From positions 27,590,001 through 27,654,000 of the forward strand of contig CM069154.1 in the NCBI GenBank assembly GCA_035221665.1: 64,000 bases of DNA, in the 5' to 3' direction. Shown here one piece after another: positions 21,022-61,455 of the stretch. Positions within the stretch are counted from its first letter, which is position 1; every line of letters begins with the position of its first letter. Below the pieces are notes generated by a model. The model did not search any database. It was not told the origin of the DNA and worked only from the letters and a program-made list of their open reading frames with translations. Both the position numbers and the translations under genes were made by a program. This DNA comes from Okamejei kenojei (lineage: Eukaryota).

Positions 21022-22647
21022 CAGTGGCTTGCAAAAGTTTTCATACCCCTTGAACTTTTCCACATTTTGTCACGTTACAACCACAAACGTAAATGTATTT
21101 TATTGGGATTTTATGTGATAGACCAACACAAAGTGGCAAATAATTGTGAAGTGGAAGGAAAATGATACATGGTTTTCAAATTCTTTTACAAATAAAAAAC
21201 TGAAAAGTGTGGCGTGCAAAAGTATTCAGCCCCCTTTACTCTGATACCCCTAAATAAAGTCCAGTGCAACAAATTGCCTTCAGAAGTCACCTAGTTAGTA
21301 AATAGAGTTCACTTGTGTGTAATCTAATCTCAGTATAAATACAGCTGTTCTGTGAAGGCCTCAGAGGTTTGTTAGAGAACATTCGTGAACAAACAGCATC
21401 ATGAAGCCCAAGGAACACCAGACAGGTCAGGGATAAAGTTGTGGAGAAGTTTAAAGCAGGGTTAGGTTATAAAAAAAATATCCCAAGCCTTGAACATCTC
21501 ACGGAGCACTGTTCAATCCATCATCCGAAAATGGAAAGATTATGGCACAACTACCTACCTATGTAAACCAACCAAGACATGGCCGTCCACCTAAACTGAC
21601 AAGCCGGGCAAGGAGAGCATTGATCAGAGAAGCAGCCAAGAGGCCCATGGTAACTGTGGAGGAGCTGCAGAGATCCACAGCTCAGGTGGGAGAATCTGTC
21701 CACAGGACAACTGTTAGTTGTGCACTCCACAAATCGGGCCTTTATGGAAGAGTGGCAAGAAGAAAGCCATGTTTGAAACAAAGCCATAAGAAGTCCCGTT
21801 TGCAGTTTGGCACAAGCCATGTGGGGGACACAGCAAACATGTGGAGGAAGGTGTTCTGGTGTGATGAGACCAAAATTGAAGTTTTTGGCCTAAATTCAAA
21901 ATGCTATGTGTGGCGGAAAACTAACACTGCACATCACCCTGAACACACCATCCCCACTGTGAAACATGGTGGTGGCAGCATCATGCTGTGGGGATGCTTT
22001 TCTTTAGTAGGGACAGGGAAGCTGGTCAGAGTTGATGGGAAGATGGATGGAGCCAAATACAGGGCAATCTTGGAAGAAAACCTGTTAGAGTCTGCAAAAG
22101 ACTTGAAACTGGGGCAGAGGTTCATCTTACAGCAGGACAACGACCCTCAACGTACAGCCAGAGCTACAATGGAATAGTTTAGATCAAAGCATATTCATGT
22201 GTTAGAATGGCCCAGTCAAAGTCCAGACCTAAATCCAATTGAGAATCTCTGGCAAGACTTGAAAATTGCTGTTCACAGACGCTCTCCATCCAATCTGACT
22301 GGGCTTCAGCTATTTTGCAAAGAAGAATGGGCAAAAATGTCAGTCTCTAAATGTGCAAAGCTGGTAGAGACATACTCTAAAAGACTTACAGCTGTAATTG
22401 TAGCAAAAGATGGTTCTACAAAGTATTGACTCAGGGGGGCAGAATACTTTTGCACGCCGCACTTTTCAGTTTTTTATTTGTAATAAGCTTTGGAAACCAT
22501 GTATCATTTTCCTTCCACTTCACAATTATGCACCACTTTGTATTCGTCTATTGCATAAAATCCCAATAAAATACATTTACGTTTGTGGTTGCAACGTGAC
22601 AAAATGTGGAAAAGATCAAAGGGTATGAAAACTTTTGCAAGCCACTG
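21022..22647 (+). mobile_element. Tc1-family DNA transposon, full length, inactivated transposase
   Basis: TA|CAGTGGCTTGCAAAAGT...ACTTTTGCAAGCCACTG|TA; ~210-bp IRs. Transposase runs from ATGAAGCCCAAG (21401) to ~22429 with DETK, QQDND and SPDLNPIE motifs (DD34E type), frameshifts and a TAG at 22175-22177. Confidence 0.95.
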
Positions 22648-44874: not shown

Positions 44875-45049
44875 TTTCAAGTAGTGAGAAAGTCTAGGAC
44901 AAGAGAACACAGATTCAGAATAAAAGGACGTACCTTTAGAATGAAGGTGAGGAGGATTTTCTTCAGTCAGATGGTGGCGAATCTGTGGAATTACCACATA
45001 TAGCAGTGGAGGTCAAGTCATTGGGTATTTTTAATGCGGAGATTGATAG
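44875..45049 (+). mobile_element. CR1 3' fragment, left half (continues at 48462-48680)
   Basis: ...GGTATTTTTAATGCGGAGATTGATAG resumes as TTGATAGGTTCTCAATTAGTACGGGTGTCAGGGGTTATGGGGAG after the insertion. An unsplit relative is at ~39100-39330. Confidence 0.85.
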
Positions 45050-47829
45050 CAAGGCTGCCAACATTGGGTGAGATTTGGGAGTGGGAAATTGCATGAGACC
45101 AAGCCCGAGGGAGCATAGCGACCGAAGGAGGGGGGGGGGGGGAGAGGGTGTGGGAAAGGGTTGTGTCCGCTCCCATTGGTACGGAGCTTTTGCATTTTTC
45201 ATCTTAAAATTGTGCAATCTGGTGCACACTGTAGCGAGTCTTTCAACTTACACTTGAATGCAATATTTATGCTTTAAATTGGCTTAGCTATGAATAAGCT
45301 TAGGCTAAATTACATTCCTACTTACATTCCACAGTAGAGCCAGGCTCTGATCAACAGGCACAACACATGAATGATCTTAGTATATTCTAGTATGGAAATC
45401 AGATTATAATCACACACTTGGCCCATGTTGACCAACCTGGGTCTCACTGCACACCTGATACTACTCCTGCCCCTGATTCCAGTTGCATTCCTTCTCTCAT
45501 TCCTGACCCTGAGTCCAGCTTTACACCTGGCCCCCTATTCTACCCTGATCATATCTGCTTACCTGCTTAGGTTCCCAGCGCTGAACACTCTCACTGTCCC
45601 AGCTTTGACTGCACACCTAGTACTATTCCTGACCTTGACTCTGGGTGCACATTTGACCTTGCTCCTTGCCCCTCTGCATTGACATATATCTGGCTCATGC
45701 ATAAAGCCCCATATCTGACCCGCTGGACTTAACCTATTACGTTCAAGTCCACAGGTGCTTATCTAATCTTTTATGGGGCACTTTACAGACAAAATATTGT
45801 ATAACAAAATTTGCTACATCCATTGGCTTCCTTGTTATCTAACATGCTAGTTACTTTGTCAAAGAAGTCATCAATTGGTTGAACACAATTTTCATCCATA
45901 AAATTATACTCACTCAGCTGTATAAGTATTCTGTTACCATTTCCTTCATTTTCTTAACAAACTGTCCTGTTGTCATTTTCACCCCCAATATTTTCTGAAT
46001 TTTGCTGTCTTCCTCTCAGCTGGGACTTTTCCGAAATGCAAAGTCCAATAGCTATATATTTAAGCAATATTATTCTATTAAATGTGATCTTGAGAGTACA
46101 TAATATTTTCTGTGGTATTCATAACACAACAATGATAAAAAGATCTTTGTTTTGATTGCACCTACCAACATGCATACATTATTATATTACAGTTCCAATT
46201 ATATTATGTTCCAATGCTCCCCATTCCCAATTACTTTTACATTGAAATGATTGAAATCCAAGTGAAGTTTAAATGGCATCATAAAAGTCAAGCCTACAGA
46301 GTGGATGATATTCATTACGTGGTTGGCTGGGGTCAGTATCAGTACAATTACTATATTAAACTTTGAATCTTCAGATGTCCTGGTTCAAGCTAAAACTAAA
46401 GACAAATAATAACCTCCTCACACATTCCCCTGCAAATATCTCTGTCACTTCTTTAAAATATGTCCCTTCTTTGAACAAGCTCTTAAACATCGCATCTGAA
46501 TCCGTTTCCTTCTGAATACACTCCTTGAGGATGTTCATCTACGTGTTCAATTAATAAAACAACGAGTTTGGGGACTTCTATTCAACCTGTCAAAGGAATT
46601 TGGGGAGGGGTTTAGAAATAGTCAGTGAGGTAAACAAGCATAATAGTTGAGTGGCAAATGAGAATAGTGGTATCTTCCCAATATTTAACTGAAGGAAATA
46701 ATGGGTTATCAGGGCTGTATGTTGTGACAGACAGCCTGACACCTTGCATGTCATTTTAATATTACACTTATCCCATCCCCCTGGATATTCTGGATTAATA
46801 AATTAAGGTTTTACATATCAGACTAATTACAAATCGATAACATTAGCCAACTCCGAAACACGAAGCACTGAGCATTGGGATCCAGACATCACGGACAACT
46901 GGCCCCAGTACCCGGTGAGGGAGTAGAGCAACTGAGTGGGGGTAGGGTGTGGGAGAGGGGTGTCCCCCCTCCCACGGTAGGGACTTTTTGAAATTTGATG
47001 TATTAAAATCATGTTTTAGTGCATTGTAGAATTGTGTATTATTTCAATGTTTTTTGTTTGAAGTATTTTTAAGAGGTAAATATTTAAGAGGTAACCGTTT
47101 TCACACAAAGGGTGGTGGGTGTATGGAACGAGCTGCCAGAGGAGGTAGTTGAGGCAGGGACTATCCCAACCTTTAAGAAATAGTTAGGCTGATACATGGA
47201 TAGGACACGTTTGGAGGGATATGGATCAAAAGCAGGCAGTGTAGCTGGGACATGTCGGCGGGTGTGGGCAAGTTGCGCCGAAGGGCCTGTTTTCACACTG
47301 TATCTCTCCAGGACTACATTATACCTCCACCATGTATGAATGCTTCAAAATCAGGTGATCGAGTTTTATTGCCATATACTCAAGCATAGAAACATAGAAA
47401 ATAGCAGGAAAGGGACATTCGGGCCTTCGAACCAGCACTGCCATTCAATATGATCATGACTGTTCATTTAAAATCAGTACCTCTTCTCCTGTTTTTTCCC
47501 CATATCCCTTGATCTCGCTTGCCCCAAGAGCTTAATGTAACTCTCTCTTGAAAACATCCGGTGAATTGGCCTCCACTGCCTTTTGTGGCAGTGAATTCCA
47601 CAGATTCACAACTCACTGCGTGAAGAAAATTTGTCCTCATCTCAGTCCTAACTGGTCTACCCTTTATTCTTAAGCTGTGACCCCTGGTTCTGAACTCCCC
47701 CAACATCGGGAACATTTTTCTTGCAGTTACAGTAACTAAAAATCTAGCAGGCAAGCTGGATGATTTCTCCAACCACCCCTATTTGAAGGTAACTCTCTTC
47801 CACCATTTCTACCCCGTGCTTGGTACTTA

Positions 47830-48033
47830 AGGGCCTGTCCCACTTGGCCGTCATTTGCGCGTCACGCAGATGGCACGTGAAGATTTTGTACATCCCAAAT
47901 TCCTGGGGCGTCGCGCGCGACTGCATGTCACAGCCTACGTCACCATGCACCATGCGCGCATCACGTGCGTCATGACGCGTAGATGATGTAGCGTAAATTA
48001 TGCGCAAATGATGCCCAAGTGGGACAGGCCCAT
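47830..48033. mobile_element. PIF/Harbinger-like MITE (204 bp)
   Basis: TIRs GGGCCTGTCCCACTTGG / CCAAGTGGGACAGGCCC; TTA TSD (47827-29 and 48034-36); CpG-rich interior. Confidence 0.85.
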
Positions 48034-48037
48034 TTAC

Positions 48038-48287
48038 TTCCAGCAGCCACTGCTTGTCCTCCAGGATGCACCGAGCCGCAGCCTGATCCATGCTGGTCAC
48101 TTGGGCGAATTCGGCAAAGACTCTCATGGCAGCGGTGCAACGCTTCTGACTCCTCCGACGGCCCTGGACTCTTGCACTGACGCTGCTCCATGGCCGAAGC
48201 TGCAGCGAGCGACTCGCCAGCCTGGCAAACACTCGCCAGCCCAGGCTCCCCGTCCGCATCTGTCTATGCCAATGTTTCTGCTTCCAT
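48038..48287 (-). pseudogene. TDP2: Pseudo-exon resembling coding exon 1 of a TDP2-family gene (N-terminal UBA-like domain)
   Basis: Reconstructed as MEAETLA*TDADGEPG...HRCHESLC/AEFAQVTSMDQAAARCILEDKQWLLE|gt. The last 28 aa match recalled human TDP2 LCVEFASVASCDAAVAQCFLAENDWEME at 14 positions. In-frame TAG at 48264-66 and an apparent 2-nt deletion near 48115. Confidence 0.7.
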
Positions 48288-51200
48288 CCCTCCCTCAGCC
48301 CCGGCTATCCAACACCCGCGGCCCATGCAGTTGATATGAGTTTTGAAATTTTCATTGATCACAGAATTTCTCATGACAGAGCGTGAGAATTTGGTGAAAT
48401 GCGTGATTCTCAAGCTCAATGCATGATTCTCACGCTCAATGCGTGAGAGTTGGCAGCCCTGTTGATAGGTTCTCAATTAGTACGGGTGTCAGGGGTTATG
48501 GGGAGAAAGCAGAAGAATGGGGTTAGGGGGGAGAGATAGAGTGAATAGCGGAGTAGACATGATGGTTCGAATGGCCTAATTCTGCTCCTATCCCGTCTGA
48601 CCTTATGATCAGCCATGATGGAATGGCAGAGCGACTCGATGGGCCGAATGGCCTAATTTTGCTCCTATGTCCTATGATCCTATGTTCCAAAATGGTTCAT
48701 CACAATCTGGTATATATTGATTGCTTCATTGTGCCTTGTCAGGCCTTTTGTGTTGACAAGCCCAAAATGTGGACAGGCCTTTTGGCCTGACTCATCCATG
48801 CCAACCAAAAATGCCCCAAAAGCATCAAGACAACTTTATTTCTCCAACAACCTCCTACAGCCCCTCATGCTCTACAGATATTTCACAGTTTAAATCCTTG
48901 TCACCATTACAACGGACACACACAATGAATTTTATTTAATCAAAACCAGTTATGCATCATAAATTATTCACACAATTATGACGTATGAGATTCCTTTTTA
49001 GATCTTGCATTCCATGTCAATTGCTTCCTTTCTGGAGATCAAGGTGGAATCTAATATAAAAGAACAGACTCACCAGGAAGGAGGATCAGAAAATGAAAAT
49101 TATTTTTGCCACCTTCAGGGATGCACTGTTTGAAATCATTGGGAAACTGAGACTTAGTGCCTGGAGGAATTTATTGAGATGGGAAGATACGTGACCCTGG
49201 AAGTACTTAAACAAGAGGATAACATTTTATGGCAGTAAAGGACTGTGAGACCATACATCGATGAGGAAAGGAGGAGTAAGGATGGGCCTTTGAAAGTGGA
49301 AGGAGGCAATTCTTGTAACGTTCATAAGTAATGGTAGGAGAATTAGGCCATTCGGCCCATCAAGTCTACTCTGATATTCAATCATGGTTGATCTATCTTT
49401 CCCTCTCAACCCCATTCTCCTGCCTTCTCCCCGTCTCCTTCTTAAGTAGAAGAGGATTATACAGTCACAAAGTCATGCAGACGCAGTCAGTTCTTTCGGC
49501 CCAACTCATTTATTTCTGTGTATCTGTCCAAGTGTCCTTTAAATATTGTTATTGTAACTGCCTCAACTACTTAATCCGGCAGTTTGTTCCATACACCAAC
49601 CATCCGCCATGTAAATAAATTTGTCCCTCAAGTTTCTACTAAATCTTTCCCCTCTTAAAGTTATGCTCAACAGTTCTTCATTACCCTACCCTGAGAAAAG
49701 ATACCATGCATTCACCCTATCTATTTCCCCTTGTGATTTTATACACCTCTATAAACCACCTCCCCCCCCCACCCCCTCAGTCTCCTGAAGCCAAAACAGT
49801 GATCTAGAAAGTTTCAGCATGATCCCGTTGGTTTCAGATTATGGGTCTCCATTTATAATGTGGAAAATATATTTGTCTTTTTTCAACTACATCACCTTGC
49901 TTGCCCACCTTTGAAGACTTGCAAATATGGAAATCGAGTTACTCCAGCATGTTGTGTCTTCCTTCTACTCACCAATAGTTTTACAAAATTGTCGCAATGA
50001 TAGAAAATCTATGACTTGATGCTGTTCCAATGTGCAATGTAACTGCTTTTTGACCTGAAAATTGATTGCCAAAAGCAATTGTCATTTTTATATGCACACT
50101 GCACTCTTCAGGAAATCGCGATTCGCTCTTTTATGCGCAAGAAGCACTTATGAGAGGAGACTGCTGTGCATAGAGCAATGATTCAATCGGAAATCAGAAC
50201 ATGATTGAGATTGTTGACAGGATATTGCAAATAGCAACTCAGCAAACAGCATGCACCTCACAGCAAGAAACAGACCTTCCTGCTTTCAACGTAAGTGTAA
50301 GGACTGTTCTGAACGATAGCCAGAACGTTTGACAGAGAGGTATTGAAGGAAGGTCACAAAGTTATCCATCTTCCTGAAATTCTTCCAACATTGCTGGTCA
50401 CCTATCGCTAATGATTTGCTCCCACCAATCACACCTGGTTCTAAATTATGATAGAAACAAAGAACTGCAGATGCCGGTTAATACACAAAAGGACACAAAT
50501 TGCTGGAGTAACTCAGCAGGTCAGGCAACATCTCTGGAGAACATGGACAGGAGATGACCAACTGAAACGTTGTCCCTATAAATTATAAATTATAAATTAT
50601 CTCCAATCAAGGATAGATGGACCCTAAAGTGGGACAACTACTTGATTCTGTCATTATCAGCATTAAGAAAACTCAAAGTGCTGGAGAAAACTCAGTGGGT
50701 TAGGCTGCATCTAGGGAAGGAATGGACAAATAGTAATTCGGGTTGGGACCGTTCTTCAGTGAGAAATCCCGATTGTTCAGTATCTGGCCCAATACGTGCC
50801 TATTGCATGGTTAACTATAAAACCACTGGGAAATTGGTTCCAATCCTTCCTTTAAACTCATGTAGAAAGGAATTTCTCAGCCCACTGGAGGTCAGCCCGC
50901 CAAACTACCATGTCCTTAGATAGGTACTGACCCGAAAAGTAGTCTTAAGAAAGGTCCCAACCCGAAACGCACCCATTCTTTTTCTGCCTGACCCGCTGAG
51001 TTACTCCAGCATTTTTGTGTCTATCTTCCTTTTAACTCATTGGTTTAAGGTGATGGGGTAAAGATTGAATGGGAACCTGAGGGGTTACACAAAGGGTGGT
51101 GGATGTATGGAACGAGTTGCCGGAGGAGGTGGTTGAGGCAGGTACTATTGCAACGTTTAAGAAACATATAGACAGGTACATGGATAGGATTGGTTCAGAG

Positions 51201-53498: not shown

Positions 53499-55071
53499 CA
53501 GTGGCTTGCAAAAGTATTCATACCCCTTGAACTTTTCCACGTTTTGTCACGTTACAACCCCAAATGTAAATGTATTTTATTGGGATTTTATGTGATAGAC
53601 CAACACAAAGTGGTGCATAATTGTGAAGTGGAAGGAAAATGATACATGCTTTCCAAATTTTATTACAAATAAAAAACTGAAAAGTGTGGCGTGCAAAAGT
53701 ATTCAGCCCCCCTCAGTCAATACTTTGTAGAACCACCTTTCGCTGCAATTACAGCTGCAAGTCTTTTGGGGTATGTCTCTACCAGCTTTGCACATCTAGA
53801 GACTAACATTTTTGCCCATTCTTCGTTGCAAAATAGCTCAAGCTCAATCAGATTGGATGGAGAGCGTCTGTGAACAGCAATTTTCAAGTCTTGCCAGAGA
53901 TTCTCAATTGGATTTAGGTCTGGAATTTGACTGGGCCATTCGAACACATGAATATGCTTTGATCTAAACCATTCCATTGTAGCTCTGGTTGTATGTTTAG
54001 GGTCGTTGTCCTGCTGGAAGGTGAACCTCCGCCCCAGTCTCAAGTCTTTTGCAGACTCCAACAGGTTTTCTTCCAAGATTGCCCTGTATTTGGCTCCATC
54101 CATCTTCCCATCAACTCTGACCAGCTTCCCTGTCCCTGCTGAAGAAAAGCATCCCCCGCAGCATGACGCTGCCACCACCATGTTTCACAATGGGGATGGT
54201 GTGTTCCGGGTGATGTGCAGTGTTAGTTTTGGTCTCATCAGACCAGAGCACCTTCCTCCATATGTTTGCTGTGTCCCCCACATGGCTTGTGGCAAACTGC
54301 AAACTGAACTTCTTATGGCTTTGTTTGAACAATGGCTTTCTTCTTGCCTCTCTTCCATAAAGGCCCAATTTGTGGAATGCACGACTAATAGTTGTCCTGT
54401 GGACAGATTCTCCCACCTGAGCTGTGGATCTCTGCAGCTCCTCCAGAGTTACCGTGGGCCTCTTGGTTGCTTCTCAGATCAATGCTCTCCTTGCCCGGCC
54501 TGTCAGTTTAGGTGGATGGCCATGTCTTGGTGGGTTTGCAGTTGTGCCATACTCTTTCCATTTTCGGATGATGGATTGAACAGTGCTCCGTGAGATGTTC
54601 AAGGCTTGGGATATTTTTTTATAACCTAACCCTGCTTTAAACTTCTCCACAACTTTTTCCCTGACCTGTCTGGTGTGTTCCTTGGGCTTCATGATGCTGT
54701 TTTTTCACTAATGTTCTCTAACAAATCTCTGAGGCCTTCACAGAACAGCTGTATTTATACTGAGATTAGATTACACACAAGAGGACTCTATTTACTAATT
54801 AGGTGACTTCTGAAGCCAATTGGTTGCACTAGATTTTATTTAGGGGTATCAGAGTAAAGGGGGCTGAATACTTTTGCACGCCACACATTTCAGTTTTTTA
54901 TTTGTAAAAAAATTTGAAAACCATGTATCATTTTTCTTCCACTTCACAATTATGCGCCACTTTGTGTTGGTCTATCACATAAATTTCCAATAAAATACAT
55001 TTACGTTTGTGGTTGTAATGTGACCAAATGTGGAAAAGTTCAAGGGGTATGAATACTTTTGCAAGCCACTG
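53499..55071 (-). mobile_element. Tc1-family transposon, inactivated copy
   Basis: TA-flanked IRs. Transposase 54692->53717 (MKPKEHTRQVREKVVEKFKAGLGYKKIS...SDETK...QQDNDPKH...[10 protein letters not shown]) with a stop, a deletion and a frameshift. Inserted in a Rex/L2-type fragment. Confidence 0.95.
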
Positions 55072-60589: not shown

Positions 60590-61455
60590 TGATTTTGATT
60601 TGATTGGATTTAATTTATTGTCATTGTCTTCAATTAAGAGACAACGGAATTCTCTTTCATACAAAAAATAAAATTAAAAAAAAACACAAAAACACAGAAC
60701 ACAGTAGTCCACAACACAAACATCCCCACAGCGGCACCAAAGTTCCCCACTGTGAAGGGAAGGACCAAAGTCCAGTCAACCTCCTCGCTGATGTTCCCCA
60801 ATGTTCACCCGTGGTCGGGACCTTCCGAGTACCCCCATGGGCGGCCCAATGTACAGGCCCTCTCGCCGGGAATGATGGAACCCCGACGTCGAACGGGAGA
60901 ACATCCTCAGCGGCCTGGACCTCTGAATTGGCCACCTTCCACCGGAGTCCGCGGCTCCAAATGCCCACAGGCCGCGTTGGGCGGAGATACGCACTGGTGA
61001 CCCCTGGCAAAGGGTTCCAGGACTCTGCGATGTTAAAGTCAGCGCCGCCCGCGTTGGGAGCCCCGCACCCACAGCTCCGCGATGTTAGAGCAGCGGCCCA
61101 ACACTCCAGAGCTCCAAGCGGCAATCCCAGGTAAGGCCTCGCCCGCTCCGTGATGTATCGAGCGCAGCGCCGCAGCTGCGGAAGCTCTGGTCCGGTCCCG
61201 GCAGGAAAGGCCGCGCCAATCCAGTTGGTAGGCCACAAGGGTGGTGGGGGGGGGGGGGGGGGGGGTGGACGTGACTCGGATAATAGCCGCATCCTTGCCA
61301 GGAAACGACTGAAAGACAGTTCCCCCCTTATCCTACCCACTTCCCCCCACATAAAATACTGAAAAAAAACAAAAAAACACTCTAAACATAACAAAATTAA
61401 AGAAGACAGCCAGACCGTGGGCGGAGGCAGCTATTAAAAGCGTCACTGGATGTCC
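60590..61455 (-). mobile_element. GC-rich non-autonomous retroposon (LINE 5'UTR-like body, Rex/L2-type 3' tail)
   Basis: Minus-strand 3' end GACAATGACAATAAA followed by short (AATC/AAATC) repeats; CpG-rich body; embedded in an old decayed CR1 ORF2. Confidence 0.5.

Follow-up and report, generated by a model that had tools for sequence, protein, structure and literature searches.

How did the first exon of the DNA-repair gene TDP2 come to lie inside a transposon? This question is raised by positions 45050-48461 of a 64-kb stretch of the skate Okamejei kenojei (contig CM069154.1, positions 27,590,001 to 27,654,000; hereafter the window), which a sequence-only reading had described as a Pack-type non-autonomous element carrying that exon. 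The termini of the element, its parent gene and its copies all confirm this description; what it had missed is that there are at least 1,600 copies, that the exon decays nearly neutrally and that a sister family exists. We consider it highly probable that the element is a non-autonomous member of the hAT group, which took up TDP2 sequence once and was mobilized in trans, its cargo decaying neutrally since. The window holds no other TDP2 exon, and an intact TDP2 lies on contig C2, outside the element.

The ends of the element are well defined. Its 13-bp terminal inverted repeats (TIRs), CAAGGCTGCCAAC at 45050-45062 and, in reverse, CAGGGCTGCCAAC at 48449-48461, differ at one position, and the target site duplication (TSD) TTGATAG is perfect on both sides, at 45043-45049 and 48462-48468. 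Both features had been recognized from the letters alone, as had the insertion into the 3' end of a CR1 copy. When the flanks are rejoined at TTGATAG, the joint is continuous in alignments with other CR1 copies: of the 13 matches that cross it, 10 show no gap within 10 bp of it. The window copy is 3,412 bp long, as against about 3,350 bp for the majority of the 22 copies aligned from its family, family A. Its parts are as follows.

45043-45049, forward strand: left TSD copy TTGATAG, within the interrupted CR1 3' end.
45050-48461, no strand assigned: the whole element, read as a non-autonomous hAT-type Pack element of family A.
45050-45062, forward strand: left TIR; extended by the next 6 bp, it matches the terminus at the 3' end of hAT transposase remnants (19/19 for L269).
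45063-45410, no strand assigned: left subterminal region, common to sister family B (87% over 359 bp).
45411-47086, no strand assigned: AT-rich family-A interior, with no Pfam match over the cut-off in 20 frames and no transposase remnant.
47087-48307, reverse strand: cargo from host TDP2 (G000:C2:145913215-145914142), interrupted by a miniature inverted-repeat transposable element (MITE).
47087-47725, no strand assigned: two CR1 fragments, in the order and orientation of host TDP2 intron 1.
47726-47829, reverse strand: unique (non-repeat) start of TDP2 intron 1, from alignment to the host locus.
47830-48033, no strand assigned: the MITE, a later insertion private to the window copy, with TIRs of about 30 bp and a TTA duplication.
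48034-48037, reverse strand: splice donor GTAA, the remaining donor bases separated by the MITE.
48038-48287, reverse strand: TDP2 coding exon 1, beginning with the ATG and ending with the codon that precedes the donor, with the UBA-coding part at about 48038-48130.
48308-48461, no strand assigned: right subterminal region with the right TIR (48449-48461) and repeated GTGAGA motifs, in loose alignment over about 130 bp with the 5' end of a decayed hAT copy, L299.
48462-48468, forward strand: right TSD copy TTGATAG, matching the left copy.

Within the interior, 46908-47086 repeats a motif that is also found near the left end. The 204-bp MITE, which we take to be PIF/Harbinger-like, is absent from the 19 other loci compared; it lies 4 bp into the donor and turns GTAAGT into GTAAAT. 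A 2-bp deletion in the exon, upstream of the UBA part, places that part out of frame with the ATG. The proposed UBA segment running up to a GT donor stands as a similarity to TDP2; the window copy itself is frameshifted and its donor interrupted; the intron-like sequence is likewise present, and reaches 47087 rather than 47725.

From which locus was the cargo taken? In translation the GC-rich segment resembles the N-terminus of TDP2. Its matches to the TDP2 UBA domain are weak in PDB (6q00, E 0.059) and in Pfam (UBA_4, E 0.06); the best named match, TDP2 of Leucoraja erinacea, is clearer (E 1.1e-4). In the host genome, TDP2 exon 1 lies at about 145913232-145913501 of contig C2, and exons 2-7, with 81-98% identity to Leucoraja TDP2, follow downstream up to 145941822. 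The cargo is collinear with this locus over about 930 bp, with an ungapped identity of 83-95% per 100 columns. Captured were about 25 bp 5' of the ATG, the entire coding exon 1, the donor and about 640 bp of intron 1, the latter consisting of about 100 bp of unique sequence and then the two CR1 fragments in host order. Because donor, unique intron and both CR1 fragments are collinear with the host, the capture was from DNA and the cargo is not a retrocopy, as the sequence-only reading had claimed in speaking of intron-bearing genomic DNA. The reverse direction, a TDP2 exon derived from the transposon, is ruled out by the presence of the UBA domain in TDP2 across vertebrates.

The element is far from unique. 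An exon 21-mer matched 1,603 times genome-wide with up to two mismatches (control 1), a count that may score one locus twice since some copies have a duplicated right end, and the exact 19-bp right end matched 1,585 times (control 0). First-look candidates numbered 2,875 for the exon segment, 2,476 for the left end and 1,457 for the interior, so that both termini are repeated throughout the genome. The duplicated right end, which repeats part of the exon, marks a subfamily of family A (L060, L065, L107-L110, L185). From 22 copies we derived a 3,353-bp majority sequence, to which most segments are 88-96% identical; the copies show internal deletions and later insertions. In 70 stretches examined, 34 elements had both ends, and their TSDs measured 7 bp in 15 cases (11 exact), 6 bp in five, 8 bp in four and 5 bp in one, with a mismatched-pair control of 0.2% for the 7-bp length. 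All 25 TSDs differ from one another, which indicates transposition after the capture. Contigs from the sequencing runs of four organisms run across the boundary of right end and cargo, and the runs of eight organisms contain 31-41% of sampled interior words; family A is therefore not confined to this genome. No RNA run was listed among those with interior words, a result that has no bearing on expression of the exon.

Was TDP2 captured once or repeatedly? A tree with 46 rows sets all 44 element rows, 43 of them different, apart from the host exon and its local duplicate as a single group with 100/100 support; inside this group the branching is star-like. Such a pattern points to one capture followed by a burst. 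A 15-bp near-tandem repeat at the intron-side junction of the majority sequence fits microhomology and hence would be consistent with a template switch, as in the models presented in PMC8277862. We propose that the element acquired exon 1 and a portion of intron 1 of TDP2 once, likely by template switching during DNA repair, that a related hAT transposase likely mobilized the element in trans to at least 1,600 sites, and that the exon would then have decayed as an apparently neutral passenger.

The neighbourhood of the parent gene was also inspected. One copy lies 24 kb upstream of the parent exon; it was rejected as a founder left beside its parent, since of 78 parent-specific letters it shares only 3 and it does not branch basally. 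Three insertions of families A and B (four right ends; C2:145873000-145897000, L092-L094) lie within 40 kb upstream of TDP2 exon 1 versus none in 718 kb of other loci, a concentration noticed post hoc. Around the intact gene, partial TDP2 duplicates are found at C2:145727000-145757400 and 145967600-145967900, comprising one exon 1, which has decayed, and three additional last exons.

Do any of these copies still use the exon? The majority sequence contains the complete 84-codon exon with its GT donor. Among 49 copies spanning the exon, from which protein-selected matches were left out, 24 are frameshifted, 11 contain stops and 17 show neither, and 447 non-synonymous changes were counted versus 509 expected from class-matched synonymous rates. 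The decay of the exon across the family is near neutral. Some copies could nonetheless be functional, as a portable CpG-rich first exon, complete with ATG and donor, that is spliced into neighbouring genes and adds a ubiquitin-binding UBA domain to them. The frame and donor of the majority sequence, the 17 copies free of frameshifts and stops and the donors reading GTAAGT or GTAGGT in 38 of the 49 argue for this. Chimeric splicing is likely to occur somewhere among more than 1,600 copies, and in bats, according to PMC4224331, the first exon of NUBPL carried by a Helitron does fuse to a host transcript. We nevertheless regard functional copies as unlikely in view of the family-wide decay, the capture of only about 25 bp upstream of the ATG, by which the promoter was probably left behind, and the frameshift and damaged donor of the window copy. 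In a weak test, no joint at the element donor was seen among the best 15 of 585 joints from four runs of contigs whose RNA status was guessed. Going from 49 to more than 1,600 copies, we infer that no copy has a function; the copies likely make no useful protein.

The copies form a dated, neutral record of TDP2 exon 1 in its ancestral skate state, against which the evolution of the host gene after capture can be tested. Comparison of the host exon with the majority sequence shows 29 differences over 251 sites, with G/C in the host and A/T in the majority at 21 sites and the reverse at one; eight of the differences can be explained as CpG decay in the element, and in the CR1 part of the intron the two directions are balanced (16 to 17). 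At 21 amino-acid differences, other skates match the element in 15, which places these changes on the host side, and the host in 4, three of these in a poorly aligned stretch. The copies thus preserve more of the ancestral exon than the host does. Host exon 1 (L096:3232-3510) has a GC content of 79% versus 68%. The internal Met with which TDP2 begins in other rays has been lost from it, and its frame is kept only with a GC-AG intron: its donor is GC, that of the copies GT, so the host either changed GT to GC or retained GC. At cargo site 207, a residue of the AQVT motif, Leucoraja TDP2 and 37 of 58 copies have Gln, and this host, 20 copies and Rhinoraja have Leu, a distribution that may reflect homoplasy or else conversion of the host gene by copies.

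The simplest cause of the GC shift in the host is biased gene conversion at a CpG island. A more elaborate cause, conflict with a silencing of the copies by small RNAs that would also match host exon 1 and have driven it away from them, has a parallel in the small-RNA cross-talk between captured gene fragments and host genes that the summary results of 10.1101/777037 describe for maize. It appears improbable, biased gene conversion being simpler and the Leucoraja exon having stayed element-like; if true, it would provide a vertebrate example of epigenetic conflict arising from capture, and the copies make such cross-talk testable. The copies also have a practical consequence: repeat libraries built de novo would cause exon 1 of TDP2 to be masked in these species and UBA domains to be overcounted. 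The TDP2 model of Amblyraja has no UBA match, a gap that may stem from repeat masking of exon 1.

Which transposase moved the element? At a locus on contig C8, a Dimer_Tnp_hAT domain (Pfam E 1.8e-10) is followed by the left terminus of the element, and the two closest relatives of this locus (84% and 70%) share its ending, one of them at 19/19. Three decayed hAT transposase loci have 18-19 of 19 bp of the terminus at their 3' end and unrelated flanks beyond. L299 retains both ends: its 5' start agrees in 17 of 19 letters with the right terminus of the element, and its subterminal repeats are similar. L299 is a relative, and at most a candidate parent. Related hAT families show the same terminus pattern, and among their 19 end pairs, two of these pairs being one element, from 31 stretches, exact TSDs of 6 bp occurred in 14 and of 7 bp in three. 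The 6-bp length, a feature of hAT6, is found in 14 of 19 pairs of these autonomous-type families versus 5 of 34 elements of the Pack families, where the mode is 7 bp and the classical 8 bp of hATs is found in 4 of 34. The main text of PMC12730594 describes hATs with 5-, 6- and 7-bp TSDs, so 8 bp would not be defining for such groups. The captured exon has the same sense as the transposase gene and lies about 160 bp in from the end that corresponds to the 5' side of that gene.

Together, these comparisons suggest a related hAT transposase as the mobilizing enzyme, and the element is best read as a short-TSD hAT derivative. The decayed hAT remnants share the termini of the element, and none of them is intact. 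TIRs were detected within 1.5 kb at none of the 30 best Dimer_Tnp_hAT loci and at one of 20 further hand-picked ones. The element has no transposase of its own, since neither the 20 interior frames in Pfam nor a tblastn search with an 848-amino-acid hAT protein (nothing under E 0.4) gave a match. This protein, which has no solved-structure match, comes from one of the related families (L300, L301, L348-L361), a young one with intact 848-amino-acid frames, near-identical copies and 6-bp TSDs that is possibly recently active.

P-like elements have 7-bp TSDs, and the sequence-only reading had leaned to them on the strength of the 7-bp duplication. Membership of the P superfamily (P, Galileo, 1360) agrees with the TSD mode and with a 19-22-bp right-end remnant of the TIR family inside a THAP/P-transposase family. 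We searched with Pfam PF12017 and PF21787 and inspected 30 of 39 P-domain loci with 1.5-kb flanks, 15 of them in 10-kb stretches; in none of the 30 did a THAP/P transposase gene share the termini of the element. The one THAP/P family found starts differently (CCAAAGATTATAGAG...), the TIR remnant lies within intron 1 of that family in the orientation of a nested end, and the sole P locus with a left TIR contains an inserted family-B copy. By comparison, the hAT remnants end precisely in the terminus of the element, with unrelated flanks after it, which makes a P-like origin very improbable. The THAP/P family itself (L148-L154) is multi-exon, has about 40-50 copies and a decayed transposase, and carries the TIR-family remnant in intron 1.

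Do the ends or the cargo account for the spread? The first 30 exact right ends comprised 14 of family A (12 with the UBA part), 11 of family B, three P-intron remnants and two others. Family B is 2.2 kb long and has the left 359 bp and the right 91 bp in common with family A; its seven full copies have TSDs of 7 bp (five) and 6 bp (two). Its insert is not the TDP2 cargo; it is CpG-rich (71% GC), has donor-like motifs and in the copies (L262, L309, L310, L313-L316; e.g. G000:C1:16230804-16233002) resembles another first exon with an intron. A second capture likely lies behind it; its parent was not found by best-40 scoring, with about 2,000 copies obscuring the search. Since family B is nearly as common with another insert, the ends and not the cargo explain the success of both. 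That the cargo itself aided the spread, TDP2 being a repair factor for protein-DNA adducts, is barely conceivable: family A did reach its high copy number with the cargo in place, but the UBA exon alone was taken, with no catalytic exon, family B is about as common (11 versus 14), and DDE/hAT transposases are not known to make 5'-phosphotyrosyl adducts.

Several observations weigh against a single-capture hAT element with a neutrally decaying cargo. The ratio of observed to expected non-synonymous changes is 0.88, slightly under 1, and 9 of the 34 elements with both ends have no recognizable TSD. The bootstrap of the cargo tree has not settled. The transposase loci examined yielded no intact gene with these exact ends; the subterminal similarity of L299 to the element is loose (40 bp at 78% by BLASTN), and its own TSD is unclear. 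Finally, no source for the family-A interior (about 1.7 kb) was found: the best 29 other matches are all family copies, and the 120 kb around TDP2 contain no match elsewhere.

Outside the element, the window contains two transposase remnants (21494-22174 and 53720-54590), presumably Tc1/mariner-like from motifs in their translations, and a GC-rich region with long open frames (60600-61430), possibly the CpG-island first exon of a nearby gene.

How does family A compare with known systems? Plant Pack-MULEs and Pack-CACTA elements capture GC-rich 5' gene fragments from DNA, the same ends enclosing different cargo, as in families A and B. The plant Pack-MULEs form many low-copy families; here, one capture reached a very high copy number behind short, 13-bp TIRs. 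The element has the features of a Pack-TIR: two TIR ends, cargo that is not transposon sequence and has an identifiable host parent outside the TIRs, a retained intron, TSDs and flanks that differ from copy to copy, and no transposase of its own. According to the survey results of PMC8277862, hATs are the commonest Pack-TIR carriers (208 of 370), and Pack-hAT-N8_XT, with the 5' untranslated region of CAPSL, likewise has TIR ends around host DNA and distinct TSDs per copy. The same results list four multicopy Pack-TIRs in 100 animal genomes, one example having three copies, so that family A, with at least 1,600, exceeds the vertebrate cases reported there hundreds of times. The pipeline as summarized, with a unique parent at 90% identity and annotated transposon ends, could miss such a family. 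No paper on family A was found in the literature; Repbase and Dfam were not searched, and the family may be named there without its cargo noted. In having TSDs shorter than 8 bp, it resembles hAT5, hAT6 and hAT7 as characterized in the main text of PMC12730594, where hAT7 is a fungal lineage; the relatives described here mostly have 6 bp and family A mostly 7 bp. The closest parallel in scale among vertebrates is HelibatN3 of bats, which according to PMC4224331 also amplified the 5' part of a gene, the first exon of NUBPL together with some of its intron, to about a thousand copies, and likewise shows a bias to 5' ends. HelibatN3 is a rolling-circle Helitron, without TIRs or TSDs and with the promoter included, whereas family A moves by cut-and-paste and took almost no upstream sequence. 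Family A is thus a Pack-hAT, of a known kind and with an exceptional copy number for a vertebrate gene-fragment capture: a cut-and-paste element has amplified a host coding exon to the scale of thousands, as so far reported for bat Helitrons and not in the Pack-TIR survey.

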